Of a DNA stretch of 64,000 nt, positions 4,723 to 43,416 are shown in pieces. Numbering within the stretch: position 1 is the first letter of the stretch; the number at the start of each line of letters is the position of its first letter. The DNA comes from Shigella phage Sf25: sequence record MF327009; one strand, given 5' to 3'. The position numbers were made by a program, and so were the translations under genes. The notes below the pieces were generated by a model. That model was not told the DNA's origin. It was given only the letters and a program-made list of their open reading frames with translations, and did no database searches.

Positions 4723-5223
4723 CTAGTTTACATGAACATTAATCATTGCGCTGCGAGGAACTACGGAATACTCTCCAGCATGAACTACGTTCAGAAGTTC
4801 AACACCATTTTCAATCCATTGGTCAGTTACCCATCCATTTACTGGACCAGCGAATGGGCGTCGAATTGAAACATATTTACACAGCAGATCTGTAGGATCT
4901 GGAATTTTTTCAACTGGTGTTACATACATAGAAACTAAATCCATATCAATATGGGATTTTTCCTGTTCTTCTTTTTCAATTTCTGTCAATAAATTAAAAT
5001 CTTCTTCATAGATGATTAATGATGATACCTTTCCATAATAGTTTCTAATTTCCATGTACATCATACCAATGAGAATTCCATTATTAACACTAATAACAGT
5101 AAAAGGATATCCGCCAGTTGTACTAAGAAGTTCCCAAAACTTGCTATCAGTCGTATTCGACGTTGTCTGGAAATCAATTTCAGACGGTTTTTTCATTTGA
5201 TACGCAGCATTAATTTTAATCAT
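4723..5223 (-). CDS. hypothetical protein, paralogous family member
   Basis: Conserved motif WVTDQWIENGVELLNVVHAGEYSVVP shared with neighbours. Confidence 0.5.
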   Translation of the reverse strand: MIKINAAYQMKKPSEIDFQTTSNTTDSKFWELLSTTGGYPFTVISVNNGILIGMMYMEIRNYYGKVSSLIIYEEDFNLLTEIEKEEQEKSHIDMDLVSMYVTPVEKIPDPTDLLCKYVSIRRPFAGPVNGWVTDQWIENGVELLNVVHAGEYSVVPRSAMINVHVN

Positions 5224-7216: not shown

Positions 7217-8536
7217 TCACACATAAAATACATCATAACGACCACGAGTTACACCAACATAAAGAAGCTGCTGAGCTAGTTCAGCGTCTGCATAATGAAT
7301 GCAAGGCGTATAAATGAAAGCACGATCTACAGACATACCCTGAGCTTTATGAAATGTTGATGCAGGAAGTGCTTTCACTTTACTAAACTGTGATTTAGCA
7401 TCCCAAAAATCGCTCCAAGGTGCTTTTCCGCCTTTGTTCCAATTTTTATAAGTTTCTGCTGTTTTACCTAAAAATAGGTTAAACTTATACAATTCTTCAT
7501 CAGATGAAATTATTTTAATCTTTTCACGATAATATTCATCATCACCATAAGTTTCTACTGTTAAATCCCAATGACGAATTAGATATTCTCCAGGAACACC
7601 ACGAGCTTTAACAAACGTTGATGTATACTCTGCTTCTATAATACGAACTAACTGTCCATTGTTAAAAATAATTTCTGATACCGGTTTTCCGTCAATTTTA
7701 TATGTTTTAATTAACGGTTCTTGCATTACAATAATTTCACCAACAATAAAATCTTTATCAGTTTCAAAAATCTTTTTACGAATAATGCTATTTAACTTGT
7801 CAACGGATTTATTCGTAAATGCCATTACGCGATTTTCAAACAAATCATCTAGTGATTTAACGATTGAAAAATAATTTACCATAAAATCACGTAAAGCGGT
7901 ATCACCTGTAAATCCGCGTACTCCATGACCATCAATGATTTTATCATAAATCCATTTGCCATTACGAACATCAGTAGCTACATCAATAATAGGAGCATTA
8001 CTACGTTTAACTTCAGTAAGTTCACATTGATAAAAATCTTTATGCGTAAAGAATGGACTGATATAAGCAGTATTTTCTCCTGGATCAACAGGCCTAATTT
8101 GCTTATTATCGCCTATTCCAATTATAGTACACCACGGTGGGATAGTTGAAAGCAAAATTTTGAAGAGCTTTCTATCATACATTGATACTTCGTCACAGAT
8201 TAAAACTCGACATTTAGCTAAATCTGGTACTTCTTTTTGTTCAAAAAGAACGTTTTCTTCATACGTAACTGGGTTAATTTTAAGAATACTGTGAATAGTA
8301 CTCGCTTCTTTCCCTGACAGTTTTGAAAGAATCTTTTTAGCTGCATGAGTAGGAGCTGCTAAAATAATACCAGTTTCGCCTGTAGATATTAAAGCTTCAA
8401 TGATGAATTTTGTAAGAGTAGTCTTACCAGTACCAGCAGGTCCATTAATAGTTACATGATGTTTCTTTTCTTTAATAGCCCTCATAACGATGTTAAAGGC
8501 ATTTTTCTGGCCTTCTGTCAAATCATCAAATGTCAT
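7217..8536 (-). CDS. dda: Dda DNA helicase (SF1B), 439 aa
   Basis: Walker A GPAGTGKTT, SF1 helicase motifs, exact T4 Dda length. Confidence 0.9.
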   Translation of the reverse strand: MTFDDLTEGQKNAFNIVMRAIKEKKHHVTINGPAGTGKTTLTKFIIEALISTGETGIILAAPTHAAKKILSKLSGKEASTIHSILKINPVTYEENVLFEQKEVPDLAKCRVLICDEVSMYDRKLFKILLSTIPPWCTIIGIGDNKQIRPVDPGENTAYISPFFTHKDFYQCELTEVKRSNAPIIDVATDVRNGKWIYDKIIDGHGVRGFTGDTALRDFMVNYFSIVKSLDDLFENRVMAFTNKSVDKLNSIIRKKIFETDKDFIVGEIIVMQEPLIKTYKIDGKPVSEIIFNNGQLVRIIEAEYTSTFVKARGVPGEYLIRHWDLTVETYGDDEYYREKIKIISSDEELYKFNLFLGKTAETYKNWNKGGKAPWSDFWDAKSQFSKVKALPASTFHKAQGMSVDRAFIYTPCIHYADAELAQQLLYVGVTRGRYDVFYV

Positions 8537-8844
8537 CGGAAAGTCCCTGCAATTGGAATACTAACAATACGCCCAGTATCTAAAATTCGCTGATATAATC
8601 TTTGTGTGTCTACGTCAGGCTTAACATGTTTAACTTCTATTTTATTAAACCAAAACTTGCGTGGAGTCTCAACTAGTCTTGGAATTCCCATACCTAAAGC
8701 TAGTTTATATTGGTCTTTGAGAGTAGTAAAAACTCTATCAGCAATCTCTCTTTCAAAAAACACAGCAGGACGATGTTCATCAAGTGGAACTGGCGCCGTA
8801 AATCCGTCTTTGTCTCGGTAAACTATCGCATATACATAAACCAT
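8533..8844 (-). CDS. hypothetical protein (dda.1 position)
   Basis: ORF track; start overlaps dda. Confidence 0.45.
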   Translation of the reverse strand: MVYVYAIVYRDKDGFTAPVPLDEHRPAVFFEREIADRVFTTLKDQYKLALGMGIPRLVETPRKFWFNKIEVKHVKPDVDTQRLYQRILDTGRIVSIPIAGTFR

Positions 8845-8845
8845 A

Positions 8846-9592
8846 TTATCCTCGGATAAGTTTAAAAATTGAACAATTTAGCGGGTATCCTCTTTTCAGT
8901 TTAAGTTTATCAATAAAAGACAAGTTTTGATACCGCTCTACACCTTGAATAATTTTATCACACATATCATATTGCATTTCTGCTTCTGACAACTTTTTCA
9001 CAATTTTCCAATCCGAGCCTTTAAGAAGAACGTTCAGTTTAACAACTTCTGCGCCTTCTGCTATGCGAGAACCATCAATACGAGCTTTAAGTGCTATAAT
9101 CCTTAGCTTAATGTCAGAGGTCTGTTTTGATTTAGAAAGCTGAGAAATGTGTTCAATTCGATTTTCACGCTTTTTCTGTATAGCTTTAATTTGATTATAA
9201 GTCTTTTTGATTTTAGCCCATTTCTTTTCATCTAAATTTAGTTTATGAACTTTTTTCGCAGATGAACGACCAATTCGCAAAGCAAATAAATCCCGTTTTT
9301 CAATCAACTCTTCTAAAGTATAATCAGAACGAAATGTATTATACTTTTTCTTAACAGGGATAACATTTCCTTTAATATATCCAATGTCATTATTAAAACG
9401 TTCTAATGATAATTTCTCTCCTTCAATACGATTATCAAAAGGTTCTCCTGAATAGGCACAAACTTTTTGATCTAAAATGTTCTTAATGTAATTGAAGTCT
9501 AAGTTAAAATCTTTAGAACGTCTTTTTGCAGATGCCTGAGTGTGCTCTAAACGACGTTTAATTTTACGAATTTGGTTATTAGACAGTTTCAT
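8846..9592 (-). CDS. basic Lys/Arg-rich protein at the srd position
   Basis: 248 aa, very basic; position between dda.1 and modA-like matches T4 srd; weak degenerate HNH-like CxY..G..N..N stretch, not convincing. Confidence 0.4.
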   Translation of the reverse strand: MKLSNNQIRKIKRRLEHTQASAKRRSKDFNLDFNYIKNILDQKVCAYSGEPFDNRIEGEKLSLERFNNDIGYIKGNVIPVKKKYNTFRSDYTLEELIEKRDLFALRIGRSSAKKVHKLNLDEKKWAKIKKTYNQIKAIQKKRENRIEHISQLSKSKQTSDIKLRIIALKARIDGSRIAEGAEVVKLNVLLKGSDWKIVKKLSEAEMQYDMCDKIIQGVERYQNLSFIDKLKLKRGYPLNCSIFKLIRG

Positions 9593-9716: not shown

Positions 9717-10163
9717 TTATAGATTAAATCCTTCAAAATCAAGAGTATAGATAGTATATGTTGAATACTTTTTGTACTCATATCTATCTGCAATTCTAAA
9801 TACACTTCCAGCTGGTATCATTACTTCTTGTTCATCTGAAACTAATTCCATATTACGATAACGATGACTATCCGGAAACTTAAAGTTTGGATTGTATTCT
9901 TTACAGCGTAGAGCTTTTATAGCATACTCCTGGAAATTGAATACCATAGGAGCTTTGAATTCAAAAATAACTTGTGTGTTATACTCTAAAATTTCATTTA
10001 ACCAAGTATGGTCATCTGGTTTATTAGTAATACAATGAATTAAAAGTTCAATTTCAGATAAATTAAACCCTTCAGAAAGTAATTCTTCACGAATAGAAGC
10101 ACGCACCGATGCATCCATTGATTTTATTTTAAAATCTTTTAGTTGCATTACTGAGTATTTCAT
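9717..10163 (-). CDS. ModA-like protein, short (148 aa), ADP-ribosyltransferase-like C-terminal motif only
   Basis: SDEQEVMIPAG resembles the ExE region of the adjacent ModB-like ORF (REQEWMIPIG); R and STS motifs not found. Confidence 0.45.
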   Translation of the reverse strand: MKYSVMQLKDFKIKSMDASVRASIREELLSEGFNLSEIELLIHCITNKPDDHTWLNEILEYNTQVIFEFKAPMVFNFQEYAIKALRCKEYNPNFKFPDSHRYRNMELVSDEQEVMIPAGSVFRIADRYEYKKYSTYTIYTLDFEGFNL

Positions 10164-10783
10164 TCAACTACCTCAATATCATAAACTTTAAATGTTCCAA
10201 ATGAATCGTGTAATTTTTCTTTTGAAATAGAAGTTATTCTATACTTTCCAATTGGAATCATCCATTCTTGTTCACGCACAATCATCATTAAGTTATCAGT
10301 ACGCTCTGAATCTAGCCCATCAGTATCTTCATACGTGTACTTAAACTCAGTATTAGGAGAAGAAAGTATAATATCGCTGATATGGTCAGAATAATTAAAA
10401 GCTTTATCAGTTTTTAAGCGAAATATTATTTCAGTGAAATACTCAACATAAGAAAAACCACATGCTGTGTGCAAACTAGTAGTAAATGAATCTACCCTAT
10501 TCGTTGAAAACACTTCTCCAACTTGTAAATCTTTAATGAGTTCTTTTGTCGATTTTGATATACCACGATATAACTGATAAGGTGATTTAGTTAAATGCTT
10601 TTTAACGATTTTATTCAACTGCCGATGAAGAGCTTCATTCTTTTTAGCTTCCATACATTGCCAAAGAACAGACTGCTCAAAGTCAGTAAATTTTTCACAG
10701 ACTTTTTTATACATATCATATTGAAAATCGACACTTTCAGCTTTTATAGATAACTGTTCAACATCTGCAAGATTAATAATCAT
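10160..10783 (-). CDS. ModB-like ADP-ribosyltransferase (207 aa)
   Basis: R (LYRG), STS-like (FSTNRVDSFTTS) and ExE (REQEW) motifs in canonical order; length as T4 ModB. Confidence 0.5.
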   Translation of the reverse strand: MIINLADVEQLSIKAESVDFQYDMYKKVCEKFTDFEQSVLWQCMEAKKNEALHRQLNKIVKKHLTKSPYQLYRGISKSTKELIKDLQVGEVFSTNRVDSFTTSLHTACGFSYVEYFTEIIFRLKTDKAFNYSDHISDIILSSPNTEFKYTYEDTDGLDSERTDNLMMIVREQEWMIPIGKYRITSISKEKLHDSFGTFKVYDIEVVE

Positions 10784-10810
10784 GATAGCCTCCGTATACT
10801 TCAGAAGCTA

Positions 10811-11226
10811 TCATATCATCGTTAGAAAGGAAAGTAAACAACTTTTTGAATTATTTTGCCCAGGGAGCCCAAGGCGGAGGGTCAAGATGGTATGAAGCTA
10901 GTTCTTCTAGAAGAGCATCTGGGGCTTCAATTCCATAATTCTGTAATACTATACGGTACTCTTTCTTATAATCACTAGAATCATTCTGGTTATTCGTAGA
11001 ATGATTATCTTCTAACATTCATATCATCGTTAGAAAGGAAAGTAAACAACTTTTTGAATTATTTTGCCCAGGGAGCCCAAGGCGGAGGGTCAAGATGGTA
11101 TGAAGCTAGTTCTTCTAGAAGAGCATCTGGGGCTTCAATTCCATAATTCTGTAATACTATACGGTACTCTTTCTTATAATCACTAGAATCATTCTGGTTA
11201 TTCGTAGAATGATTATCTTCTAACAT
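10811..11226. repeat. exact tandem duplication, 2 x 208 bp
   Basis: Unit tcatatcatcgttagaaagg...gattatcttctaacat occurs twice head-to-tail with no mismatch; covers codons 6-60 and 3' flank of the small ORF 11059..11241. Confidence 0.85.
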
Positions 11227-11241
11227 CTCAAATAAATCCAT
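11059..11241 (-). CDS. small hypothetical protein (60 aa); partial second copy downstream
   Basis: ORF track; truncated duplicate (from internal Met) lies in repeat copy at about 10851-11018. Confidence 0.35.
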   Translation of the reverse strand: MDLFEMLEDNHSTNNQNDSSDYKKEYRIVLQNYGIEAPDALLEELASYHLDPPPWAPWAK

Positions 11242-11249: not shown

Positions 11250-11732
11250 CTAGCGATAAAAACCAAATTGACGATTAGCTTCAATAATCTTTCTTTCTTC
11301 TTCGGACATTCTCCAGCGTAGTCCAACATCAAAATGAGCCCAGACCATCTTAACAAATGCATTTATATCTTTAATATCTTCAATAATGAATGTTTTACTT
11401 TTAGAAGGTTGACCTGCTAAATTAAGTGCTAATTTAACTTTATCGTCTTCAAACAGGGCAAAAAGACCATATTCATGAGCTCTTTTATAGCCTTTAATAG
11501 TTAAAGCTTCAGAAGAAGAAAACGGTGAATCAGTATTCTGTAAAATATCTTCAGTATGCTTTATAATTAGAATAACATTTTCTGGATATTTTCTTTCTTT
11601 TATATCTTTAATTAAAATATCCGGATTTTCTGCTAAAGGAATAATTAATGAGCACTTTTTATCAAGTGTATTTACCGATTTACCTTCTTTAGACATAAAT
11701 TCTATTGAATAATGTTTTGCTACTTCAATCAT
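11250..11732 (-). CDS. hypothetical protein
   Basis: ORF track, 160 aa. Confidence 0.45.
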
Positions 11733-11885
11733 GTGATTTCCTCTTGCCTACTAATGGGCCGTCAGGAATTTTGTTTTCCTGGATATATTTCTCATTTTCT
11801 TCCATCATTTTACTGCCAATTTTAAGAAGCAAATCCAATGCTTCATTTGCTTTAGCCTTGGCCTCTTCTAGCGTCATATCTCTGT

Positions 11886-12089
11886 TCACGATTTATCCCC
11901 ATAGATGTCTCTCATCAATTTAAGCGCTGAGCGTTCTAATTTCTTTTCTTTCTCAACGCTAATCATTGATTTCATCCATTCTTCTGATTCGTTCTGCATT
12001 TCTTTATTTGCTTGTTCAACCCAACCATCATCAATGTACATTGAGTTTGGTCTATTGAACCATTCAAACATTTTCTTCAGAACTTTCAT
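11886..12089 (-). CDS. hypothetical protein
   Basis: ORF track, 67 aa. Confidence 0.35.
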
Positions 12090-13530: not shown

Positions 13531-14308
13531 TTAATAGCCTCGATCTTGACGAGCGAAGTTTTCAGCATTTTTCAGATAATAAAGTTTAAAGATTTCCTCA
13601 GCTGACATTCCAAGAGCAATGAATTTATTCATGAAAAAGTGAAATTGGTCAATCAGTTCAAATTTAATTTCAAGCTGATCTTCAGGAGATAAGTCTTGAA
13701 TTTTCTTGGATTGCATTTCAGAATAACGTTTCTTCCAAGGTTTCCATACAGCAGAAGCTTCTTTTTCACCATTACTCATACCACCAAGAGAAGTATATAG
13801 CTCGCGAGTTTCATCTGCGATATAATCGTCTTGGTTTCGCAACCAAGCAAGAACTTCTCCTGCAGTTTCAAGTGAATCAGGATGACGATTTGTTTCTGGT
13901 TTATCATTAGCCAAACGAATCTGTAAATGCCGCTGCATGTCAAATTTTCTTGGATTGCATTTCAGAATAACGTTTCTTCCAAGGTTTCCATACAGCAGAA
14001 GCTTCTTTTTCACCATTACTCATACCACCAAGAGAAGTATATAGCTCGCGAGTTTCATCTGCGATATAATCGTCTTGGTTTCGCAACCAAGCAAGAACTT
14101 CTCCTGCAGTTTCAAGTGAATCAGGATGACGATTTGTTTCTGGTTTATCATTAGCCAAACGAATCTGTAAATGCCGCTGCATGTCAAGCATAACCTGCAA
14201 TGGGTCAATACTGTGCATAATATACTCAGCATATGCACGATTTGCTTTATCAACACCTTCGATCAAATGAGCACATTCATTAAAGTGAGCCATTATTTTT
14301 CCTTTCAA
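13531..14308 (-). pseudogene. 56: dCTP pyrophosphatase gene 56 (MazG-like) disrupted by a 244-bp tandem duplication
   Basis: Two overlapping ORFs (13940..14308 and 13531..14016) share an identical 81-aa block; removing one repeat unit restores one ORF of about 171 aa at the gene 56 position between soc and dam. Confidence 0.7.
13699..14186. repeat. exact tandem duplication, 2 x 244 bp, inside gene 56
   Basis: Head-to-tail identical copies; unit length not a multiple of 3. Confidence 0.85.
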
Positions 14309-14353
14309 TTCATTAATAAGTTAAATAATTATATCATTTGAGTATGTAAGCAA

Positions 14354-15693
<1,340 letters not shown>

Positions 15694-15714
15694 TATATCA
15701 TCCTCAGCAATTTG

Positions 15715-15748
15715 TTTTATAATACCATAACAAGCTGAGAAAGTAAAC
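15715..15748 (-). promoter_or_regulatory. early-promoter-like site (GTTTAC -35, TGGTATTATAA -10) for the nuclease-like gene
   Basis: Minus strand reads GTTTAC-N17-TGGTATTATAA. Confidence 0.45.
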
Positions 15749-15786
15749 AAATTTATGATAAATATTAATTTAAAGGAGGACGACGC

Positions 15787-15987
15787 ATGGTACAAAAATT
15801 AATGGCACTTGTTAATGCCATCAAAGGTAATAAAAAACGTATAGCTTTTACTATTTCTGCTATGGTAGGAATTTTACTCTGGAACTTTATTTTATCACCT
15901 GTTGCAATTGCACATGGTATTAATATTCCAGTAGTTACTCTTGATACATTCGTAGATTTAGCATTTGCTTTAGTTGGGTTAATTTAA
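15787..15987 (+). CDS. small hydrophobic (two predicted TM) protein on the opposite strand
   Basis: Strong SD AAAGGAGGA 6 nt before ATG; fills the otherwise empty 290-bp gap between gene 61 and the nuclease-like gene. Confidence 0.3.
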   Translation: MVQKLMALVNAIKGNKKRIAFTISAMVGILLWNFILSPVAIAHGINIPVVTLDTFVDLAFALVGLI

Positions 15988-17012
15988 ATCTTAGCATATT
16001 TAGATAACCTCATTTTAGCCATCAACCCCTGGGCAATATTATTTTTCATATATTCCATAATTTGTTCAGGGGTTGCACCTTCCTTTCTAATCATATCATT
16101 AACATCTTTTGATTTCCAGGGAGATTTATCCCAAAACATAACTCTTTCTCCTGCATCAACTAATTTAGTCATTCGTTTGATAGTGTCAGGGTGACGAGGT
16201 TCATTATCTAAAACCCACACTCGTCTATCTTTAAATGGAACAACTTCTAGGTCTAATTGACCACCCGTAATAGCTATACCATTTTCAATAAAAAGTGAAT
16301 CTATAGGTCCTTCTAGAACATATACATCACCATCTTTAACTCGTTCAACACCGTAAATTTTTGTTGCCTCAGGATAAGCTTTGATGGTGATATACTTTTG
16401 TGGAGCATCTTTCTTTAATGCACGACCTTGAAAAGACTCAGCTTTTCCGTTAGCATTATAAATTGGAATAACAAGACGAGGCTCAGAAATTTCCTTTTTG
16501 TATGTTCCCGGTGCTATGCTATTAACTAATTTAGGCCATTCGGTTGTAAACCAAAGATATTTCCATTTATCCTTTGGAATACAACGAGCTTTTACATATT
16601 TTATAATTGGATGGTCTTCCGCCAGTTTATCTAATCTAACGCATGACGGAAGAGATTTAATTATTTTCTTCTCAGGCTGTTTAGGAAGTTCTTTAGGTTT
16701 TTCTACTGGACGACTTTTACCTTTTTCTTTTCTTATTTCAAAGATATACTCACGATATAAATCAGGTTCAAACTCCTTTAAATATATTCCGATTGGTGCA
16801 TGATAGTTACAGTTATAACAATGAATATTTCCTTCATTATTATCACCATAATACCATCCACGGGCTTTATTTTGGTCGGTTTTTGAATCTCCACAAACAG
16901 GGCATCTAAACCGCAACTTAAAGGTTGAACTATTATTTACTTGTGTAAATTTAGGTAAATGAGCTAATGCACGGTATGCAAACTCATTATCAATCCAAGG
17001 TATTGATGACAT
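15984..17012 (-). CDS. 61: DNA primase gp61, 342 aa
   Basis: N-terminal zinc ribbon CPVCGDSKTD...CYNCNYH, toprim-type primase; T4 gp61 length. Confidence 0.9.
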   Translation of the reverse strand: MSSIPWIDNEFAYRALAHLPKFTQVNNSSTFKLRFRCPVCGDSKTDQNKARGWYYGDNNEGNIHCYNCNYHAPIGIYLKEFEPDLYREYIFEIRKEKGKSRPVEKPKELPKQPEKKIIKSLPSCVRLDKLAEDHPIIKYVKARCIPKDKWKYLWFTTEWPKLVNSIAPGTYKKEISEPRLVIPIYNANGKAESFQGRALKKDAPQKYITIKAYPEATKIYGVERVKDGDVYVLEGPIDSLFIENGIAITGGQLDLEVVPFKDRRVWVLDNEPRHPDTIKRMTKLVDAGERVMFWDKSPWKSKDVNDMIRKEGATPEQIMEYMKNNIAQGLMAKMRLSKYAKI

Positions 17013-17014
17013 TT

Positions 17015-17179
17015 TTACTCTTCTTTTTCTTTAGATTCCTCTTTCTTCTTTTTAGGAATCTGTTCAGGACCTTTATTTACTACAGCACCTGACGTTGTTC
17101 CAGTAGAGATATTTTCAGGATTACCACCTGAATCTCCAGCGACCATATCTTCTTTAATAAATTCTTTATATGTTTTCAT
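17015..17179 (-). CDS. small protein (54 aa) with capsid-targeting-sequence-like N-terminus, 61.1 position
   Basis: Own translation MKTYKEFIKEDMVAGDSGGNPENISTG...; resembles the MKTYQEFIAE leader of internal proteins. Confidence 0.4.
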   Translation of the reverse strand: MKTYKEFIKEDMVAGDSGGNPENISTGTTSGAVVNKGPEQIPKKKKEESKEKEE

Positions 17180-17180
17180 A

Positions 17181-17807
17181 TTAACCTCTATTCATAAAAG
17201 CATTAAAAATTTGGTCATCAATAGAAACATTTACTTTAGACTGTTTTTCTGATGGTAATTCATATCCACATATCACAATTTTATGATCAATATCAAAATA
17301 CACAGAAGCAATATGATTAATGATATTTTCAGTGAAGTCTAAATCGACATCAATATCTTTTTGACCAAAGCCCAAAGGATAAATAATGCGAGTAATTCGA
17401 TTATCTTTAACAAAGATTCCACCGACATACTCTGTACTGCGTTTAAAGTCTACACGCCGACGAAATGAAAAATATTCAGGCTCTTTATGAGCTCGGCTCA
17501 TAGGACACAACGAATAACTAGAATAAGAGATGTCAAATCCTACGCCTTCAATATGAGCCAAAGTGTCATGATTAAACCAATTATAATCGTACGCCAAATC
17601 CATTAGATTATAATATGTAAAAGGCACCGGATTAACATCATTAGTCACAAGCATGTAATTAGCAACTGCTATAATTTCATTGTTTTTAACGAATACAAAC
17701 CGTGATTGATGCGAATGACCTGGACCCGCGTTTTCACGATTAATGATATAACACTGGGCACCTTTATATTTGTATGTATCTTTGCACTTGTGCATTTGAT
17801 AGAGCAT
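17181..17807 (-). CDS. hypothetical protein, 61.2 position
   Basis: 208 aa ORF at the position of T4 61.2. Confidence 0.5.
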   Translation of the reverse strand: MLYQMHKCKDTYKYKGAQCYIINRENAGPGHSHQSRFVFVKNNEIIAVANYMLVTNDVNPVPFTYYNLMDLAYDYNWFNHDTLAHIEGVGFDISYSSYSLCPMSRAHKEPEYFSFRRRVDFKRSTEYVGGIFVKDNRITRIIYPLGFGQKDIDVDLDFTENIINHIASVYFDIDHKIVICGYELPSEKQSKVNVSIDDQIFNAFMNRG

Positions 17808-18100
17808 TATTCACCTACCACTTCAGCGATGATATTTTTGTTATTAAAGTTTTTATCGCAATACAGAACATAATTATACTGCATTACACCACCAGACTTA
17901 AGCTGTTTTTGCACTTCAGCTTTCATTTCAGGACGATCGCGCTCAACAATATTCATAATATCCGCTTCAATTTGAGTTTCAACCTCAGTCTGATCAGCAG
18001 TCATAGACCATTCGCACAAATCTTTATCATAACCTGCCATAGCAGGCTGAGCAGCACAAGAAGCTAAAGCAAAAATTGTAGCAAAGATAAATTTTTTCAT
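17807..18100 (-). CDS. sp: periplasmic protein, spackle (sp) position
   Basis: 97 aa with N-terminal signal peptide (MKKFIFATIFALASCAAQPAMA); size and position match T4 Sp. Confidence 0.6.
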   Translation of the reverse strand: MKKFIFATIFALASCAAQPAMAGYDKDLCEWSMTADQTEVETQIEADIMNIVERDRPEMKAEVQKQLKSGGVMQYNYVLYCDKNFNNKNIIAEVVGE

Positions 18101-18160
18101 GATAATCTCCTCAGTAGTTTATGTTTATATAGTATCTCAATTTCCAACAAAAGTAAACAG

Positions 18161-18460
18161 TTATTTTAAAACTTCTGTGTAATCACATGTTACAAACTGT
18201 TTCTCTAGCTTGACGATTTTACGAAAGTATCTTTTACATTGACGAATCTGTCGCTTAGTAGGGCGCACAGCAAACTTAATAAATTCCACTCGACCAAATG
18301 GAGGGCTTTCTTCTGATGGAATATCTAACACCAATTCCCATGTATCTGCAATAAGTGCTTTGAATTGAGTATTTTTCCTAACGTTATACGGAGTAGGTTT
18401 AAATAAAACAATATGCATATTATCCTCGGCAATCCACTTCACATACTTTCTTGTCATCAA
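18161..18460 (-). CDS. hypothetical protein, 61.4 region
   Basis: ORF track; N-terminal part overlaps dmd and may be shorter. Confidence 0.4.
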   Translation of the reverse strand: MMTRKYVKWIAEDNMHIVLFKPTPYNVRKNTQFKALIADTWELVLDIPSEESPPFGRVEFIKFAVRPTKRQIRQCKRYFRKIVKLEKQFVTCDYTEVLK

Positions 18461-18602
18461 TGAAAGCTTTAACTAATGCTTTATTAACTTCAGCATACTG
18501 AGTAGTAGCCCATTGAACGTCATCTTTCATCATTGTGGTTTCTTTAGTAAACATGCTTTCATTCTTAAACCACCCCATAAAAACTACCTTTACCAATTCC
18601 AT
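18420..18602 (-). CDS. dmd: Dmd antitoxin-like protein (60 aa)
   Basis: 60-aa ORF MELVKVVFMGWFKNESMF... immediately downstream of gene 41, as T4 dmd (61.5). Confidence 0.75.
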   Translation of the reverse strand: MELVKVVFMGWFKNESMFTKETTMMKDDVQWATTQYAEVNKALVKAFIDDKKVCEVDCRG

Positions 18603-18629
18603 AACAATCTCCTCATTTAACCAACAAGA

Positions 18630-18661
18630 TTACTATACCATAGTCTTGTCAGCTTGTAAAC
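18630..18661 (-). promoter_or_regulatory. early-promoter-like site upstream of dmd
   Basis: Minus strand reads GTTTAC-N17-GTATAGTAAT. Confidence 0.45.
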
Positions 18662-20088
18662 TAAAATTTTAATTCATTTGCCAAAGCATCTAACTGAGCT
18701 CGAGTAGATTCATTTCTTTGATAGCGATTCTGCTCAGCCTGAATCTGTTGTGAACCTGCTACTTCGTTCACTTCAGTTGGAGTAGAATCTTGTTCAATTT
18801 CTACCCATTTCTGATTTCCTTTTTGAACACCCATCAAAAACTTATTCCATTTATTCTTATCGCCATATCGTGATTTGATTTGCTTAATGAGTTGTTGTTC
18901 AGCAGCTGCTAGCTCCTCGGTTTCAATGACCGCAAGCATAAAATCAGCTGTTGCTGGAAGACCAGCAGATTCTGCAATATCGCTCATGTTAACATCGGAA
19001 GAGTCCCAAGCTTGTTTACCAACCTGCGCTGCGGTCCAAAGAACAGTTTCGGTTTCAACAGCAAGAGCACGCAATTCCTCTGCAATAGCTTTAACAGTTG
19101 TGTAACTATTTTCTGAATAAACTCTAATGCGGCAAGATTTACAAATACCTAGATAGTCGACAATAATGATTGTTGGAACAAAATTCTTCTTGAGCTTCAA
19201 TTCATTCAAGAGAGACCTGAATGTATTAGCGTCTGCTCCACCAGTAGGATATTGCTTAACGATTAAACGACCGAGAGTAGATTTCTCACGCCATTTTTCC
19301 ATTTTTCCTTTATATTCGGCGTAAGAAATATGTCCATCATCAATATCGTCAAGAGAAACATCGAGCATGTTAGCATCAATACGTTTAGCACAGACTTCTT
19401 CTGCCATTTCCATGGAGATATAAAGAACGTTATGACCAAGCTGCAAATAATCTGCTGCTAATGAGCAAAGTCCTAATGATTTACCAACGTTAACGCCAGC
19501 CATTAAAACGTTCAGTGTTCCTGTTTCAGCTCCGCCTTTTGTAATTTTATTCAAAATACGAAGTTTAAATGGAACCTTACGAGCTTTATTCATATAAGAT
19601 AGCCAGCGTGCTTCGTAGTCATCCATCCAATCATGACCAACGTAGCTATCAAATGAAATTGATAATGCTTGGCGCATGATGTCAGGAATAGCACCTACAT
19701 CTGGCATTTTCTTATTTCGTTTTTCCGGAGGAAGCTCAGCATTAGTTTGAATTTCGATTATTTTAGACGTAGCATTAAACATCGCCCTTTGCTGAACATA
19801 TTTTTCTGTTTCTTTTACTAACCAACTATGGTCTTCCGGAGAATCAGCTAGTTTTGAAATAAGTGTTTTTACACCAGAATATTCTGTTTCAGTAAATGAA
19901 CTATTTTCTAATGCAACATTTAACGCATTAATAGATGGAACGCTATGATACTCATTAACATGAGATTTAATTAATTTGAATGTATTTTTAGCTGGACCAC
20001 TTTCAAAATATTCTGAATCCATATATGGCCAAACTTTTGAAAAATAAGCTTGATCAAATATGAGATGAGAAAGAATAATTTCTACCAC
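18661..20088 (-). CDS. 41: replicative DNA helicase gp41 (DnaB-like), 475 aa
   Basis: RecA-like core with Walker A AGVNVGKS; T4 gp41 length and position. Confidence 0.9.
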   Translation of the reverse strand: MVEIILSHLIFDQAYFSKVWPYMDSEYFESGPAKNTFKLIKSHVNEYHSVPSINALNVALENSSFTETEYSGVKTLISKLADSPEDHSWLVKETEKYVQQRAMFNATSKIIEIQTNAELPPEKRNKKMPDVGAIPDIMRQALSISFDSYVGHDWMDDYEARWLSYMNKARKVPFKLRILNKITKGGAETGTLNVLMAGVNVGKSLGLCSLAADYLQLGHNVLYISMEMAEEVCAKRIDANMLDVSLDDIDDGHISYAEYKGKMEKWREKSTLGRLIVKQYPTGGADANTFRSLLNELKLKKNFVPTIIIVDYLGICKSCRIRVYSENSYTTVKAIAEELRALAVETETVLWTAAQVGKQAWDSSDVNMSDIAESAGLPATADFMLAVIETEELAAAEQQLIKQIKSRYGDKNKWNKFLMGVQKGNQKWVEIEQDSTPTEVNEVAGSQQIQAEQNRYQRNESTRAQLDALANELKF

Positions 20089-20097
20089 ACTTACTCC

Positions 20098-20454
20098 TTA
20101 AAAGAATTTAAATTTTTTCTTTGACCTTTTATTAAATGCATCTTGCAGTTGCATTGTAATACATTTTTCTACATGAGGAGCTAACTCAGCTTTTCTTTCT
20201 TGGTCAAGAACAGCAAAGTCCATTACAACCTTTCCATCAACCCAATCCAGTTTAGTTACATACACTATATGTGTAGAACCATCTTCTAGTTTAATGACAA
20301 TCTCCTGGATAACATTTTCCATAGCGGATTTAATTATCTTAAGAGACTCATTAAAAAGACGTTCTTTTCTTTCTTTTTCCCCCTCCGAAGAGGGGGATTC
20401 ATCGATAATTTCTAAATCTAAATCATCTTTACTCATTAAATTCTTCCATATCAC
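20098..20454 (-). CDS. 40: gp40-position protein
   Basis: Position between uvsX and 41; acidic N-terminus; contains a strong GC hairpin. Confidence 0.5.
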   Translation of the reverse strand: MIWKNLMSKDDLDLEIIDESPSSEGEKERKERLFNESLKIIKSAMENVIQEIVIKLEDGSTHIVYVTKLDWVDGKVVMDFAVLDQERKAELAPHVEKCITMQLQDAFNKRSKKKFKFF

Positions 20455-21610
20455 TTAACTGCTCGAGGTCAGTTTCTAAATCAGCTGCTGATTTACTTTT
20501 ACTTTCTGGAGATTTAAATTTTTCAACCTTTGAGTTAATCAATTCATCAACTTCAGCTTCAACAATTTCATTACTATCAATAGCACCTAACTGATAAGCA
20601 CGTTTAATAGCATCTCGGAATGGCTGATGCTTAAATAAAGGACCCCAGAATGTAGTGCAGTTGGTATCTTTTGCACGCCAAGATTTTTCTTCGCGAATCA
20701 TCTCACCGGTTTCTTCGTCAAGAAATTCACGAGCATACCAGCCATTTTTAGGTTTTACCACAAATCCTAATTCAAGAGCCATATCTAACAATCCAGAATA
20801 AGGATCGATGCCACCGTCAAATTTAACATCAATAAAGAATTTACTTTTTTCTTTAACGGTACGAGATTTTTCTACATTTAGAACAAATTGATACCCCTGA
20901 AGATCAGAACCATCTTTAATCTGGCGCTTACCGATAATGAATACAGTATCAGCCGAATACATTACGCCTGTACCACCTGTCATCACGGTTTTACTAAACA
21001 TTTCAATTGTTTCAATTGTATGGTTAACCGCAACACATGGAATATTTTTAATGCTAAAGTAAGGAGTAACAATACGGAATAATGACTTCAGTGATTTAGC
21101 ACGAGTCATATCTGCCACAGATTTTTCATTCAAGGCATCTTCAGTTTCTTTCTTAGAAGCCATATTACCGATTGAGTCGATGAATACAATAACTTTTTCA
21201 CCGCGCTCAATAGCTTCAAGCTGATTCACCATATCAATTTTTAGCTGTTCAACTGACTGAATCGGCGTATGAATTACTCGTTCTGGGTCAACCCCCATGG
21301 ATCGCAAATAAGCTGGAGTAATACCAAATTCGCTATCATAGAATAGACAAACCGCGTCAGGATATTTGTTCAAATATGCCGCAACCATAGTCAAAGACAT
21401 ATTTGATTTAAAGTGTTTAGAAGGCCCTGCGAAAATAGTTAAACCAGACTGCATACCGCCATCAATCGCACCAGAAATAGCAATATTAAGCATTGGAATT
21501 TTTGTACGAATTACATCCTTTTCATTAAAGAATTTAGATGTAGTCAGTTCAGCAGTCATTTTAGAAGTGGAAGCTTTAATCAAACGGGATTTTAAATCTG
21601 CAATAGACAT
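20429..21610 (-). CDS. uvsX: UvsX recombinase (RecA-like), 393 aa
   Basis: RecA fold with Walker A GPSKHFKS; T4 UvsX-like N-terminus MSIADLKSRLIKASTSKMTAELT. Confidence 0.9.
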   Translation of the reverse strand: MSIADLKSRLIKASTSKMTAELTTSKFFNEKDVIRTKIPMLNIAISGAIDGGMQSGLTIFAGPSKHFKSNMSLTMVAAYLNKYPDAVCLFYDSEFGITPAYLRSMGVDPERVIHTPIQSVEQLKIDMVNQLEAIERGEKVIVFIDSIGNMASKKETEDALNEKSVADMTRAKSLKSLFRIVTPYFSIKNIPCVAVNHTIETIEMFSKTVMTGGTGVMYSADTVFIIGKRQIKDGSDLQGYQFVLNVEKSRTVKEKSKFFIDVKFDGGIDPYSGLLDMALELGFVVKPKNGWYAREFLDEETGEMIREEKSWRAKDTNCTTFWGPLFKHQPFRDAIKRAYQLGAIDSNEIVEAEVDELINSKVEKFKSPESKSKSAADLETDLEQLSDMEEFNE

Positions 21611-21687
21611 TCATTTTTTCCATAGGCATCATTATATTTTCCTCACTGGTTAAAGATAGAGTAATTATAACACAATAAATTTAGGCA

Positions 21688-22536
21688 TTAATCAACTGCT
21701 ATTGGATGAATAGCATTAAACTTATGAAATGCTTCTGATTTTTCTTTACGTGAAACGCACATGCGAAGAACCTTTAATGGTTCGTCTTCTTCACCCAACG
21801 ATTTTCGTTTTTCAATATTAGAAGTTTTCCAACGAGCTTGCTCTGGAAACTCTCTATTGATTTGCTCAAGCGCTCTATTATGTTTAGAATTACTACGAAT
21901 TGAACTGCACCCGCCAGGAGCTTGTGCTTTTCCAGATACAACCAGATATTTGAACAAGGCCAAATGCGGATAACCTTGATTAATTAAATTGAGAAATGCA
22001 TACATATCTTCGCACAAATCAATTTTTCCATACCCAATTTGTTCTGTCGTAAGTTTTCCAAGGTCATACCATGTATTCGTGAATCCATATGAATTTTCAC
22101 GATAATTACCCCAAGATGAAGTAATTTTAAAAATTGGTAGGCGAGCATGACCATGATAATACCCGCAATCCATGGCATCCTCAACGTATTGAATCAATTC
22201 ATAGAACTGTTCACGGGTTAATTGATTGACTTTATCTACACAACGACGGTCATCTCTTTTTCGCATTGAACTCATACGAATAGTAGTATCATCGTCAATC
22301 ATCCAGATTCGTTGACCTGCATACATATCAGTAATTGCTTTACGAGTACCGGCAATTCCGTTTACATCATCAGGAATAGTTATAATTTTAGCTCTAGACC
22401 CATAAGCGTCATAATAAGCTTTTTCTTCATGTTCACGCACTACAATATGGGGTTCATAATCAGTCGGAAACATATCAAGGGCAGAAACTGCCCCGACACG
22501 CTGATAACTTGGAATTACGAATTGAATCATTTCCAC
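21688..22536 (-). CDS. GT-A type glycosyltransferase at the beta-gt locus (282 aa)
   Basis: IWMIDDDT motif typical of GT-A folds; replaces the 351-aa T4 beta-gt between uvsX and 42, consistent with T2/T6-type glucosylation. Confidence 0.55.
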   Translation of the reverse strand: MEMIQFVIPSYQRVGAVSALDMFPTDYEPHIVVREHEEKAYYDAYGSRAKIITIPDDVNGIAGTRKAITDMYAGQRIWMIDDDTTIRMSSMRKRDDRRCVDKVNQLTREQFYELIQYVEDAMDCGYYHGHARLPIFKITSSWGNYRENSYGFTNTWYDLGKLTTEQIGYGKIDLCEDMYAFLNLINQGYPHLALFKYLVVSGKAQAPGGCSSIRSNSKHNRALEQINREFPEQARWKTSNIEKRKSLGEEDEPLKVLRMCVSRKEKSEAFHKFNAIHPIAVD

Positions 22537-23381
22537 TCACCGTTATAATCTTTTTTCACAATATGAGTTTCGCCAGTATTCCACCAATGATCAACCAAGT
22601 AAAAATGACGAGAATATACATGAAGACTTCCAACATTCCATATAATAGAACCTGCTTTATACTGACGAGTTGAATCGCCGGCATTCAAATCAGATACTAA
22701 TTTATCTAATACGTATTTTTGCCATGCATAATCATTACGGAATCCGAAGACCACGTCATTTGAGCGCATGCTTACTACTGCATTGACTTTCTTATCACGA
22801 ATCAGGTACTGTACTGTATTAGTACACATGAAATCTGACATACCATCTTTATTGTAGTCAAATTGCATGGATGGACGAGTCATGCTTACTACTGCATTGA
22901 CTTTCTTATCACGAATCAGGTACTGTACTGTATTAGTACACATGAAATCTGACATACCATCTTTATTGTAGTCAAATTGCATGGATGGACGAGTATAAAT
23001 CATGATACCACGTCGAGAATCAGGATTTTGACCAAGTTCAGCTAAACACATATCATACTGGGCATAGTTATCTTCTGACCAAATAGCCCAACCATAATTC
23101 GAGTTAATTTCGCCTTTAGAAGATGCTACCTGCTGCCAAATCTTTGGTGTTTCGCCTGGAATATCTTTGACAAACAGACTTTGAGACTTGTACCATTCAA
23201 GTTCACGCTGAATGTATTCATCATTAAGAGCGCCAAAAATAAAGGGTTCATCTGCTACAAATGATGCGCCAATAATTTCAATAGTTTTAACACCGGTTTT
23301 ATCAACTACGAAATCTTTTTCTTTTAATGCAAGCCCCAAATGAAGACGGATTTCTTCAACTGTCATAAAGTCACTAATCAT
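22527..23381 (-). CDS. 42: dCMP hydroxymethylase gp42 carrying an in-frame 38-aa tandem duplication (284 aa)
   Basis: Thymidylate-synthase-like fold; peptide VNAVVSMTRPSMQFDYNKDGMSDFMCTNTVQYLIRDKK occurs twice. Confidence 0.85.
   Translation of the reverse strand: MISDFMTVEEIRLHLGLALKEKDFVVDKTGVKTIEIIGASFVADEPFIFGALNDEYIQRELEWYKSQSLFVKDIPGETPKIWQQVASSKGEINSNYGWAIWSEDNYAQYDMCLAELGQNPDSRRGIMIYTRPSMQFDYNKDGMSDFMCTNTVQYLIRDKKVNAVVSMTRPSMQFDYNKDGMSDFMCTNTVQYLIRDKKVNAVVSMRSNDVVFGFRNDYAWQKYVLDKLVSDLNAGDSTRQYKAGSIIWNVGSLHVYSRHFYLVDHWWNTGETHIVKKDYNGEWK
22767..22994. repeat. exact tandem duplication, 2 x 114 bp, inside gene 42
   Basis: Identical head-to-tail copies, in frame. Confidence 0.85.
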
Positions 23382-24601: not shown

Positions 24602-27445
24602 TCAGCCAAACAGGAAGTCTAACGAAGCTTTTTCTTCATAGTCCATACCAGCCGATTCACACATGCCTGCAAGCGGTTTAACAAACGATTTTTGGAACAA
24701 AGTTGAGTAGTCAATCCAAGACAGTACGTCAGAACGAATTTCTTTTGGAAGTTCTGTACCCGACGGCCAAGCAATGCATTTGTCACCAAATGGATTTCCT
24801 TCACGCAATGGAAGAACCATTACTTTATTTCCATCCAAAATTGGAGCTACACCTAAACCGCTAACAGCTCGACGATAAGTTAGCACACCACGAATATGGA
24901 ACGGACATTTAAATCCTGGCCAACCTTTATCATCATATTTCGCTATATCGTTCGCAGTTTTTACTTCAGCAATAACTTTATAGTCAAGTTGACGATATTC
25001 TTTCTCGAAGTTCTTGTAATATTCTTGGACAGACTCTTCACCTTCCTGAAGAATACGACGAATACTTTCTTCGAGAGCTTCTTGGACCGCTTTAGGCGTT
25101 GAACTCTGCTGAGTTTCCATACCCATGATTTTTAGATGCGGTTCAGCAAATCGCTTATCTTCCATATCATATACGTTCAGAGCATAACGCTTTTTCGCTT
25201 TCCAAAATCCGCCAACGCCCTTTGAACCAAGTGGAGGGCAAGAAATAGCTTCACGGTCCATATGCATCAGATGCTCGCGGTTATTCATATAATCACATAA
25301 CTCACGATATGCAACATCAATCATAGGTTCCATCTTTTTCTTACCGAACTGATTCATGAATTCAACTAAATCGTTCTGCTCTTTGAATCGGTCAAGACCA
25401 ACTTTTTCAATAACTTTATCTACACAAACATATACCGAATCAGTATCACCTGCTGCAATGAAATCTTCGCCATTAGTTCCGCATACTTTATTCAGATATT
25501 CATTAATTTTACGAGCAATCCACTGAATACCAACTTGGCCGAAAATTGTGATAGCAGTAGCATTTCGCAAATCATAGTAACGGAAATGAATATTACCAAG
25601 AGCACCATAAAGACTGTTAATAAGAATTTTACGGTTCAGCTGATTTGTGTTAGCAAGTGTAGCTGCTTTTTCACACTCTTCGATCAAACTATTAAGAACA
25701 GATTCGGTGTAATTCGATAGTTCATTTAAGAAATCATCACTGAACTTAACATATCGTTCAACTTCTGGTTTAGTTGAGCAAGACCCTGCGCCTTTCATAA
25801 TAATCTTTTTAATAGCTTCGGCATTCATTTCTTCAGCGAACATTTTCTTTTTCCAATCTTTACGCTGGAAAAATACTTTAGCGATTTCCTTTGGAATGAT
25901 ACCTTCTTGATGCTTATCATACATCCATCCATTCGGAGAACAAGAATATTCATCACTCGGTTTAGGAGCTGTTCCTGCGATATATTCATGAATTGGATGA
26001 ACTTTAAACTGACCACGAATAGTCTCAGGACTAATGTTAACCTGACGAATAATGCTCGGATACAGAGACGTCAAGTCAAAACTCATAATATATCGACGAG
26101 CAATTGGTTTAGGTTCAAACACAAATGCACCCGGAAAACTCTGTTTAACGTGCGAACCTTGTTGAGGAATAACCTTATGTTCACCTTTCAATGAGTTAAA
26201 AATAATAGCATCCCAAGTTTTAATAGGACTCATTACACCGGAAAAAGGCATTTTAGCGTAATAAGACATACTTAAAACTAGATCGATAAACCCGCGAATT
26301 TTATCAATTGCTTGAACTGATTCTACGTCAATGATGTTATAACTAATGTATCGTTGATGATTAGTCTCACGAAGTTTATTAATAGGACCGTCGTATGGTA
26401 ATTTACCTTTTTTGGTTTCATGTTGAGCAACTGATTCCAAAGAGAATGACGGCAAATTAGTAAAAGCGAATTTCTTGTACAAATCTAAATAATCAAGAAT
26501 AGATACGCCATCAATAGAATAAATTTCTTTGCTGCCGTACATATTTTGAATTAGTTTGGATTTTACCCGACCGATTGGAGAGAAACGTTTCATACTGCGT
26601 TCGCCTAGAATCATTTTAACACGATTCATGATATATGGAACGTCAAACCCCTCAATATTCCAACCGGTAAAAATAGCAGGTCGTTTCTGTTCCCAGAGAT
26701 TGATATATTCCATGAGCATATCACGCTCATTATCGAATGGCATATAAATTACTCGGTCAAGAATTTCTTGAGGAACTTCATCACCACCTTCACAGTCAAG
26801 CTTAGCAGCTAACTTTGCATCCCATTTTGATACTGAACCGTACATTGAATTCAAAAGGTCGAAAACATAAAAACGATCGTCAATTGAATCGTAATGAGTG
26901 ATAGCATCAATTTCATATTCAGCTTTCATTGGGTCAGGAAATTTATCACCAGTAACCTCAATGTCACAGTTAGCTACACGAACACCGTACATTGAATTCA
27001 AAAGGTCGAAAACATAAAAACGATCGTCAATTGAATCGTAATGAGTGATAGCATCAATTTCATATTCAGCTTTCATTGGGTCAGGAAATTTATCACCAGT
27101 AACCTCAATGTCACAGTTAGCTACACGAACAAATTTTCGGTCATAAACAATTTCTGAACCATATGTATCACTGATATAAGCGAGTTTAAAATCGTTCATA
27201 CCGAGAGCTTCGAGACCGATGTCTTCCATTCGCTTCATCCAATCTCGAGCATCTTTCATTGATGGAAATTTTTGAGGAGCGCAGTTTTTACCATAGATGT
27301 CTTTGTACTTTGACTCTTCCTTACAATGCCTAAACATAGTTGGAAGATATTCTACTTCACGAGTACGTTCCTTTCCATTTTCATCAATATAACGTTCAAC
27401 AATATTATTTCCGACTGTTTCAATAGAGATATAAAATTCTTTCAT
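24602..27445 (-). CDS. 43: DNA polymerase gp43 (family B) carrying an in-frame 49-aa tandem duplication (947 aa)
   Basis: Exo I (CDIEVTG), DTDS polymerase motif, KKRY; T4 gp43 is 898 aa; duplicated block RVANCDIEVTG...LLNSMYG. Confidence 0.95.
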   Translation of the reverse strand: MKEFYISIETVGNNIVERYIDENGKERTREVEYLPTMFRHCKEESKYKDIYGKNCAPQKFPSMKDARDWMKRMEDIGLEALGMNDFKLAYISDTYGSEIVYDRKFVRVANCDIEVTGDKFPDPMKAEYEIDAITHYDSIDDRFYVFDLLNSMYGVRVANCDIEVTGDKFPDPMKAEYEIDAITHYDSIDDRFYVFDLLNSMYGSVSKWDAKLAAKLDCEGGDEVPQEILDRVIYMPFDNERDMLMEYINLWEQKRPAIFTGWNIEGFDVPYIMNRVKMILGERSMKRFSPIGRVKSKLIQNMYGSKEIYSIDGVSILDYLDLYKKFAFTNLPSFSLESVAQHETKKGKLPYDGPINKLRETNHQRYISYNIIDVESVQAIDKIRGFIDLVLSMSYYAKMPFSGVMSPIKTWDAIIFNSLKGEHKVIPQQGSHVKQSFPGAFVFEPKPIARRYIMSFDLTSLYPSIIRQVNISPETIRGQFKVHPIHEYIAGTAPKPSDEYSCSPNGWMYDKHQEGIIPKEIAKVFFQRKDWKKKMFAEEMNAEAIKKIIMKGAGSCSTKPEVERYVKFSDDFLNELSNYTESVLNSLIEECEKAATLANTNQLNRKILINSLYGALGNIHFRYYDLRNATAITIFGQVGIQWIARKINEYLNKVCGTNGEDFIAAGDTDSVYVCVDKVIEKVGLDRFKEQNDLVEFMNQFGKKKMEPMIDVAYRELCDYMNNREHLMHMDREAISCPPLGSKGVGGFWKAKKRYALNVYDMEDKRFAEPHLKIMGMETQQSSTPKAVQEALEESIRRILQEGEESVQEYYKNFEKEYRQLDYKVIAEVKTANDIAKYDDKGWPGFKCPFHIRGVLTYRRAVSGLGVAPILDGNKVMVLPLREGNPFGDKCIAWPSGTELPKEIRSDVLSWIDYSTLFQKSFVKPLAGMCESAGMDYEEKASLDFLFG
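26837..27130. repeat. exact tandem duplication, 2 x 147 bp, inside gene 43
   Basis: Identical copies, in frame; includes the Exo I motif. Confidence 0.85.
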
Positions 27446-27523: not shown

Positions 27524-27787
27524 TTAAATTAGTACTATTTGTCGGTGAAAAATTGTCATTCCATCTGCATTAATTGACTTAACGACTGCAGTAAAGTGTT
27601 TTTGTTCTGGATGAATTAATTTTTGAAATTCTACCTGAAATTTTAGTTGAAGGTTTTCTGGTAAATCAAAAAGTGTTTCTGTTGCAGAAAGATTATATTT
27701 TTCTTTAAGAGACGTCATGTATTCTTGTGGAGTTATAGCAGTCATATTAATTACCAATCGTATATTTAGGAACGAGTTTCCATTCAT
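27524..27787 (-). CDS. small hypothetical protein between regA and 43
   Basis: ORF track; probable start at internal ATG just after regA stop. Confidence 0.3.
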   Translation of the reverse strand: MNGNSFLNIRLVINMTAITPQEYMTSLKEKYNLSATETLFDLPENLQLKFQVEFQKLIHPEQKHFTAVVKSINADGMTIFHRQIVLI

Positions 27788-28115: not shown

Positions 28116-28540
28116 TTTACCATTCCAATGCTAGTTTTTTGAGTTGTTTCTGTTCTTTTACGTTCTTAGTCACTTCTTTCAAAAAATCATATCTTCGACC
28201 AGTTTTGCCCATTTACCATATCTTTTACCACGAGGAACTGCAGCCATCAGATAATTAAAATGAGCTTCATCACTTAAGCCTGATCCAATTAAATTCATAG
28301 CATATACAGCTGGCATGCACTCTGGAAATTGTGATAATGCATTTTCAACCATGAATTTTGAATAATCTTTTTGAGCAATAGAGCATTTAGTTTTATTATT
28401 AATAGCTCCAATTATTTCAAAAAATTCATTTTCAGCTTTTTCTTTAAAAGAATCAGCAGCAGATTGGACAGCTGTCCAATCTTTTGAATACCAAGCAACT
28501 TGATGCTCGTTTAATTGAATATCATCTTCAAATAAGCTCA
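28116..28540 (-). pseudogene. 62: clamp-loader small subunit gene 62, frameshifted/truncated
   Basis: ORF ends prematurely (KLVEDMIF-stop, about 120 aa); conserved C-terminal peptide [23 protein letters not shown] is in the +1 frame ending at the regA start; about 46 codons missing versus T4 gp62 (187 aa). Confidence 0.6.
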
Positions 28541-28542
28541 TA

Positions 28543-29517: not shown

Positions 29518-29533
29518 GTTTTAGTGTAAATTA

Positions 29534-29550
29534 TAAAGGGCCGAAGCCCT
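29534..29550 (-). terminator. hairpin between genes 45 and 44
   Basis: AGGGC-TTCG-GCCCT hairpin in the 36-bp intergenic region. Confidence 0.45.
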
Positions 29551-29553
29551 CTA

Positions 29554-30240: not shown

Positions 30241-30295
30241 GTAATTTCCTTCAATTCAAATGAGATTTAATTTTATAACTAATTTAATAAAGCAA

Positions 30296-30685
30296 TTAAC
30301 GATTAAAATCAGCCGCAATTGTTTCAGCAACAATTTGAGCAGCAACAATTAGGCGTTCATCTGCATTACCGCAATATTCATCTTCTAAACGTTCACCGCA
30401 TGAAGTCATAATAAATTTAGCACCGGCGTTTAGGGATTCTGCAGTATGTTTGCGCATTAGTTCAATCCATTTATTACTTACTTCACGATCGATAGCTTCA
30501 TAATACGCATGACGAGCAGGTGCAGATTTAATTTTGTTCTGAATAACTTCCATTGCGTTATCAGAAAGAGACAAAACCCATGCGCGACGAATTTTATTTT
30601 GGTTTTGCGGATTTGAGTCAGAACGCACGTGTTTTGGCTGAATATCTTTTACATCAACAGTATAATTCACAGTAATTTTAGTCAT
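30296..30685 (-). CDS. rpbA: RNA polymerase-binding protein RpbA-position ORF (129 aa)
   Basis: Size and position downstream of 46-47 and upstream of 45. Confidence 0.6.
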
Positions 30686-30694
30686 AATACACCT

Positions 30695-30883: not shown

Positions 30884-30938
30884 GTTTTTCCTCCATAGAG
30901 ATTATACTCTAATAAATTAAAGCATAATCTCTTATAAA

Positions 30939-36196: not shown

Positions 36197-36197
36197 A

Positions 36198-43406: not shown

Positions 43407-43416
43407 TTTTCACCAA

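Follow-up and report, generated by a model that had tools for sequence, protein, structure and literature searches.

The perfect 208-bp tandem repeat between modA.2 and modB in the sequence record of Shigella phage Sf25 is probably a record defect

Two identical units of 208 bp stand head-to-tail at positions 10811-11226 of the Shigella phage Sf25 sequence analysed here (record MF327009), and we infer, rather than demonstrate, that this duplication is very probably a defect of the sequence record and not a property of the phage. The repeat is most likely a joining error because it is one of eleven blunt-ended rearrangements in the window (the whole stretch of 64,000 nucleotides that was analysed) that are absent from the relatives checked, and because two of the eleven break essential genes. 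The initial annotation had implied a genuine duplication in the phage. That implication fails when the repeat is seen in the company of ten other events, as it is missing from the relatives that were compared, its junction is devoid of the microhomology of T4-type recombination, and sister events shift the reading frames of genes 56 and 62.

The window comes from a T4-like phage (genus Tequatrovirus), of which it represents the early region. When 2.5 kb surrounding the repeat are used as a query, 555 phage records match, most of them with 95-99% identity; over 25 kb, the closest genome is that of Shigella phage Sf24 (97.1%). Genes were assigned by comparison with the annotated phages Lutter, RB14, and Sf24, and the gene order srd, modA, modB, modA.2, modA.3, modA.4, srh matches that of all three, which bears out the earlier placement of the repeat among the accessory genes around modA and modB. 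All genes of the locus are on the minus strand, and transcription proceeds towards lower coordinates, through modA.3, modA.2, modB, and modA in turn. By reference to the annotated relatives, dda occupies 7217-8536, dda.1 8533-8844, and srd 8846-9592 on one side of the locus, and modA.3 (11250-11732), modA.4 (11725-11889), and srh (11886-12089) are found on the other. Between them lie modA (9717-10163), which is shortened to 148 aa instead of 200 by a 156-bp in-frame deletion at the junction 9990|9991; modB (10160-10783), which encodes an intact ADP-ribosyltransferase of 207 aa and follows the repeat directly in transcription; and modA.2 (11059-11241). Given this orientation, the repeat is located upstream of modB, and its original description as lying downstream of the modB-like gene had the direction reversed.

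The intact 60-aa ORF first reported at 11059..11241 does exist and is encoded on the minus strand (MDLFEMLEDNH..., with AGGA 7 nt before the ATG). Its product is identical at 60 of 60 aa to gp147 of Sf24, which is annotated as 'similar to T4 ModA.2' (tblastn), and its DNA matches fall under features annotated modA.2 in RB14 and T4T. In addition, the 60-aa ORF found at the same position in 16 relatives has precomputed matches to the Pfam family PF26838 (Phage_T4_Y01E). On the strength of its sequence and its position between modA.3 and modB, the ORF is identified as T4 modA.2. The T4 modA.2 product (PF26838) is a small early protein of unknown function, from which the intact copy shows no difference, whereas the second copy, of 55 aa, is without the first five codons and the ribosome-binding site. 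A scan of the locus proteins with a local Pfam library gave T4_MRH in ModA.3 as its single match and no match for ModA.2, ModA, ModB, ModA.4, or Srh, and a literature search on modA.2 found nothing relevant.

Two early proteins encoded near the repeat are highly conserved. For Dda (7217-8536) and for ModB (10160-10783), proteins without a single residue difference are encoded on more than 20 public contigs in each case (23 for ModB), and the DNA of these contigs is 2-6% off the window over the aligned stretches that contain these genes. All coding differences in both genes are therefore synonymous, a pattern that, at the level of the sequences compared, indicates strong purifying selection on both early proteins. 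At the start of modB, an RNA hairpin is predicted on the minus strand at 10775-10822 (-20.3 kcal/mol, z = -6.05; 0 shuffled sequences equally stable), in which the modB Shine-Dalgarno sequence GGAGG and the AUG would be paired with sequence that overlaps the -10 region of the early promoter belonging to modB itself. If the predicted fold is correct, the modB start would be sequestered in read-through transcripts from upstream, and transcripts from the proximal promoter would be without the 5' arm and open. This arrangement of hairpin and promoter resembles that known for T4 lysozyme and soc.

With regard to the repeat itself, direct reading, a repeat finder, and Tandem Repeats Finder concur with the initial annotation that 10811-11018 and 11019-11226 are identical tandem units. 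Tandem Repeats Finder returns a period of 208, 2.0 copies, 100% matches, 0 indels, and a score of 832, and identity at this period extends over exactly 208 positions, with zero extra bases at either edge. A perfect repeat of 416 bp cannot have originated by chance. Read on the minus strand, the unit begins at the ATG of modA.2 codon 6, takes in the rest of the gene up to codon 60 with its TAA stop, and continues through 40 nt of the 67-nt spacer between modA.2 and modB, a stretch that includes the early promoter of modB. The first copy to be transcribed (11019..11226) accordingly holds modA.2 codons 6-60, the stop, and 40 nt of spacer, and is 100% identical to the second (10811..11018), which holds a 5'-truncated modA.2 and the 40 nt of spacer, the latter in its native place before modB. 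The truncated copy is a 55-aa ORF on the minus strand (10851..11018) that starts from Met6, in agreement with the earlier account of a second copy of about 55 aa in the same frame from an internal Met, together with its 3' flank. Its ATG stands directly at the junction (...ACGATGATATGA|ATG). The junction sequence of the duplication is CTTCTAACAT|TCATATCATCGTTAG, and the start of the second modA.2 copy, read directly on the minus strand, is ...ACGATGATATGA|ATGTTAGAA; no Shine-Dalgarno-like sequence precedes the 55-aa ORF in this directly read junction sequence.

The event had been described as a duplication of most of a small ORF, which is right for modA.2, of which codons 6-60 are copied, but leaves unmentioned that the modB promoter is copied with them. 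The native promoter (10810..10838, minus strand) is intact and consists of TTTACT, 17 nt, and TATGAT, the -10 hexamer being preceded by TG. A promoter scan finds no other minus-strand match within the repeat, and the position of the native promoter carries the annotation 'promoter' in phage Lutter. Just its last base (10810) is outside the repeat, as the 208-bp unit stops one base short of the end of the -10 hexamer. In the junction copy of the promoter (11018..11046, minus strand), the -10 hexamer is TATGAA, its final T having given way to the base with which the next unit begins, and this copy fails the promoter scan, which requires T at -10 position 6. At face value, the 208-bp event would supply a crippled copy of the promoter (TATGAA) and a modA.2 fragment of 55 aa without a ribosome-binding site. 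It leaves the intact modA.2, the native promoter, and modB as they are, and would therefore be near-neutral even if real. A dosage or regulatory gain from the duplication is unsupported, given a second ORF with no Shine-Dalgarno sequence and a junction promoter that falls outside the consensus used in the scan.

A genuine and very recent duplication, as the product of unequal illegitimate recombination or of replication slippage within the spacer region between modA.2 and modB, is in our assessment unlikely. Such an event would have left the phage with an additional modA.2, truncated at its 5' end, and with a further promoter copy, and could be the first step of a gene amplification. It would have been tolerated, with modA.2, modB, and the native promoter intact; the zero divergence between the copies fits recency; and tandem duplications and amplifications are known to arise at high rates in T4-type phages (PMC9391042). 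The repeat also shares with the recombination-mediated duplication and amplification of T4 (dmd-tifA under toxIN selection; PMC9391042) its head-to-tail identical copies and its T4-type genome, and head-to-tail identical copies are likewise a feature of the T4 rII duplications, to the extent that these are described where they are cited (Kumagai et al., 1993, cited in PMC9391042). An early region rich in non-essential genes and deletions elsewhere are further points of likeness to the documented T4 duplications.

The junctions, however, are unlike those of T4. In amplifications and deletions observed experimentally in T4, the boundaries share 6-10 bp of microhomology, one copy of which is left at the junction (PMC9391042), and the documented events involve whole genes and multi-copy ladders under selection. 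In contrast, the 208-bp event has 0 bp of microhomology, exactly two copies, a sub-genic extent (from modA.2 codon 6), and no plausible dosage gain on which selection could act, the second ORF and the promoter copy being deprived, respectively, of the ribosome-binding site and the last T of the -10 hexamer. Taken together, the junctions of the rearrangements in the window show little microhomology: at the eight duplications it is 0, 1, 0, 1, 0, 1, 2, and 1 bp, with a mean of 0.75 bp that is at the level expected by chance for the base composition (0.76 bp), and it is 0 bp at each of the three deletions. Moreover, direct repeats of 208 bp are expected to collapse through the active homologous recombination of T4, which also counts against a genuine duplication.

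The 208-bp repeat belongs to a series. Over the whole 64-kb window, Tandem Repeats Finder detects eight arrays and nothing else, all with 2.0 copies, 100% identity, and 0 indels, and with periods of 208, 244, 114, 147, 177, 249, 249, and 249. Alignment with Sf24 reveals, in addition, three clean deletions of 156, 139, and 145 bp. In Sf24, all eight duplicated segments are single copy and all three deleted segments are present. Every feature of the 208-bp event is thus common to ten other events within the 64 kb, and essential genes are inactivated by two of these, which counts against a genuine duplication.

The eleven events affect minus-strand genes throughout and differ widely in their consequences. 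The 156-bp deletion (9990/9991) removes 52 codons of modA in frame, including the LWRG and SAS stretches, which hold catalytic residues according to the R-S-E motif of ADP-ribosyltransferases; an exact-protein look-up found no record anywhere of the resulting 148-aa ModA. The 208-bp duplication (10811-11226), in modA.2 and the spacer, is harmless. In gene 56, which encodes the dCTPase, a 244-bp duplication (13699-14187) causes a frameshift, with aa 1-117 in one frame and aa 36-172 in another. A 114-bp duplication (22767-22994) introduces an in-frame 38-aa repeat into gene 42 (gp42, dCMP hydroxymethylase), and one of 147 bp (26837-27131) introduces an in-frame 49-aa repeat into the DNA polymerase gp43, in which the NCDIEV exonuclease motif is doubled. 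Gene 62, encoding a clamp-loader subunit, is frameshifted after aa 117 by the 139-bp deletion (28190/28191). A 177-bp duplication (39874-40227) reaches from the end of nrdD into the beginning of nrdG and leaves one intact copy of each gene, and three 249-bp duplications create in-frame 83-aa repeats in NrdC.4 (45903-46401), NrdC.5 (47142-47641), and NrdC.6 (48337-48835). Finally, MobD.6 loses its 3' end to the 145-bp deletion (55403/55404), which also removes part of the spacer that precedes MobD.5. In T4, both gene 56 and gene 62 are essential, and with the two of them frameshifted the sequence as written therefore describes no viable phage. The 208-bp event breaks nothing, so that the viability argument reaches it only through its membership of the series.

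Duplications range from 114 to 249 bp and deletions from 139 to 156 bp, and none exceeds 249 bp. At the three 249-bp duplications the match runs are 250, 251, and 250, which would fit a technical ceiling such as reads of about 250 nt; three identical periods of 249 and the lack of any longer event are not what recombination would produce. Lengths divisible by 3 are in excess among the duplications (6 of 8, P=0.02) and among all events (7 of 11, P=0.04), which could reflect selection for the reading frame, an excess that leans largely on 249 occurring three times and is accompanied by out-of-frame events in essential genes (244 bp and 139 bp).

Absence from relatives is a further line of evidence. 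All eleven events were checked against Sf24, and the 208-bp event also against 24 further contigs, approximately 490 phage records, and three contig collections. Comparison with relatives at the modA.2 region, a check of the kind that the initial annotation had put forward for T2/T4, speaks against the duplication: Lutter, RB14, and Sf24 each have a single copy. For Lutter, RB14, and 16 contigs from NCBI, ENA, and Logan that encode an identical ModB or Dda, the alignments all break at the 208-bp junction, and each of the 16 contigs has one 60-aa modA.2 and a 67-nt gap to modB. When one 208-bp copy is taken out of the window, a single contiguous alignment is obtained to 24 independent loci, including Lutter, RB14, the 16 contigs, and IMG/VR loci. 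More generally, contigs with an identical ModB or Dda have 93-98% DNA identity to the window, and the duplication is present in none of them.

Searches with the junctions themselves gave the same result. An 80-mer spanning the 208-bp junction matched 493 of 50,697 phage records, and the best matches were all split in two pieces. A 25-mer across the junction had 0 matches in IMG/VR, JGI metagenome contigs, and GTDB genome contigs, and as a positive control the 25-mer of the native boundary matched six times in IMG/VR. Similarly, the junction of the gene 56 duplication was absent as a contiguous sequence from the best-matching of 167 phage records, and the gene 62 deletion junction was absent from the best-matching of 498 phage records, in which the deleted 139 bp are present. 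Absence from all relatives and collections searched argues against a genuine recent duplication, and also against an older, paralogous duplication of modA.2 that would be conserved and normal in a sub-lineage of T4-like phages. Nothing beyond the presence of two copies recommends the latter origin, which is scarcely conceivable: the copies are 100% identical while the locus differs by 2-5% between relatives, and this lack of divergence, together with the single copy in all relatives searched, already refutes it.

The placement of the events offers some insight into how they may have come about. Compared with Sf24, the window is a mosaic in which near-identical blocks alternate with blocks that are about 5% divergent. 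Blocks nearly without differences from Sf24 extend, for example, over 14250-22000, 28250-37500, 42000-44500, and 47250-48750, other blocks are 3-8% divergent, and a few stretches do not align to Sf24 at all (4897-5216, 27531-27746, 56840-56974, and 62096-62445). This mosaicism could be the natural mosaicism of T4-type phages, or it could point to a record in which more than one genotype was stitched together. The duplicated units occupy islands of local conservation: counted as one copy each, they have 7 mismatches to Sf24 in 1637 bp where 36 would be expected (P=0.018), and every one of them is flanked, on one side or both, by 250 bp that are clearly more divergent. Divergence from Sf24 changes more across the duplications than it does for random placement (P=0.03), and 7 of the 11 events fall at borders between Sf24-near-identical and ~5% divergent blocks, an association that is statistical evidence and not proof.

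Alternating ancestry blocks with events at their borders would also fit the presence of more than one genotype in the sample, for instance a mixed or defective phage population in which co-infecting, mutually complementing rearranged genomes were merged into one consensus. Eleven blunt events of 114-249 bp are, however, unlike the products of recombination in vivo, and we regard a population of this kind as very improbable. Since the stitching of several genotypes into one consensus already constitutes an assembly artefact, this explanation largely collapses into that of a defective record.

As to how such a record might have been produced, the exact step behind the eleven errors was most likely the joining of sequence pieces. 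We propose that the early region of a natural Tequatrovirus came to carry eleven blunt-ended structural errors when separately derived pieces were joined end to end with their ends unresolved. These may have been contigs of related phages present as a mixture, or de novo contigs for which a near-identical reference served as a patch. Any overlap between two pieces would have been written twice and would appear as a tandem duplication; such overlaps would fall in shared sequence, in keeping with the observed placement of the events, and their length would be limited by that of the reads, approximately 250 nt. Where two pieces did not quite meet, a short stretch would have been lost, leaving a deletion. 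Untrimmed overlaps at contig ends, or negative gaps closed by gap-fillers, are written as tandem duplications in assembly artefacts of this type. The events in the window resemble joining artefacts in their perfect identity, their exactly two copies, their occurrence several to a record, and their sizes bounded at 249-251 bp, which could be about one read length, as well as in their blunt and arbitrary breakpoints without microhomology, the accompanying small deletions, the absence from relatives, and the disruption of essential genes.

Other features are less readily accommodated by joining. Most of the lengths are multiples of 3, and the edges of the 208-bp unit (10810 and 11227) do not coincide with polymorphic sites among the 24 loci; a strict model in which a node shared between two SNPs was joined is therefore unsupported for this event. 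An untrimmed circularisation overlap, displaced by rotation of the genome, would account for one duplication and not for eight and three deletions. In-silico editing of the sequence, whether deliberate or accidental, would have the same appearance as joining and cannot be separated from it, although random editing would have no obvious preference for positions in conserved islands or at block borders.

If the duplication were nonetheless real and fresh, it would provide the phage with an N-terminally shortened second modA.2 and a twin early promoter for modB, as the first step towards amplifying part of the ADP-ribosyltransferase accessory region, possibly in response to selection exerted by a host defence. 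We find a biological role of this kind decidedly unlikely. By extension, the genome could then be one that tolerates many small duplications. Even so, a real 208-bp duplication would amount to a minor, near-neutral structural variant in a gene of unknown function.

The value of the finding is, rather, mainly that of a warning. Eleven structural errors would corrupt the gene calls, protein families, and evolutionary inferences that are drawn from this window, and the readings affected include a 'duplicated modA.2', a 'truncated ModA', a 'split dCTPase', a 'short gp62', and 'repeat-containing' forms of gp42, gp43, and NrdC.4-6. It will be important, therefore, to judge all eleven events together when the early genes of this phage and the proteins they encode are interpreted.
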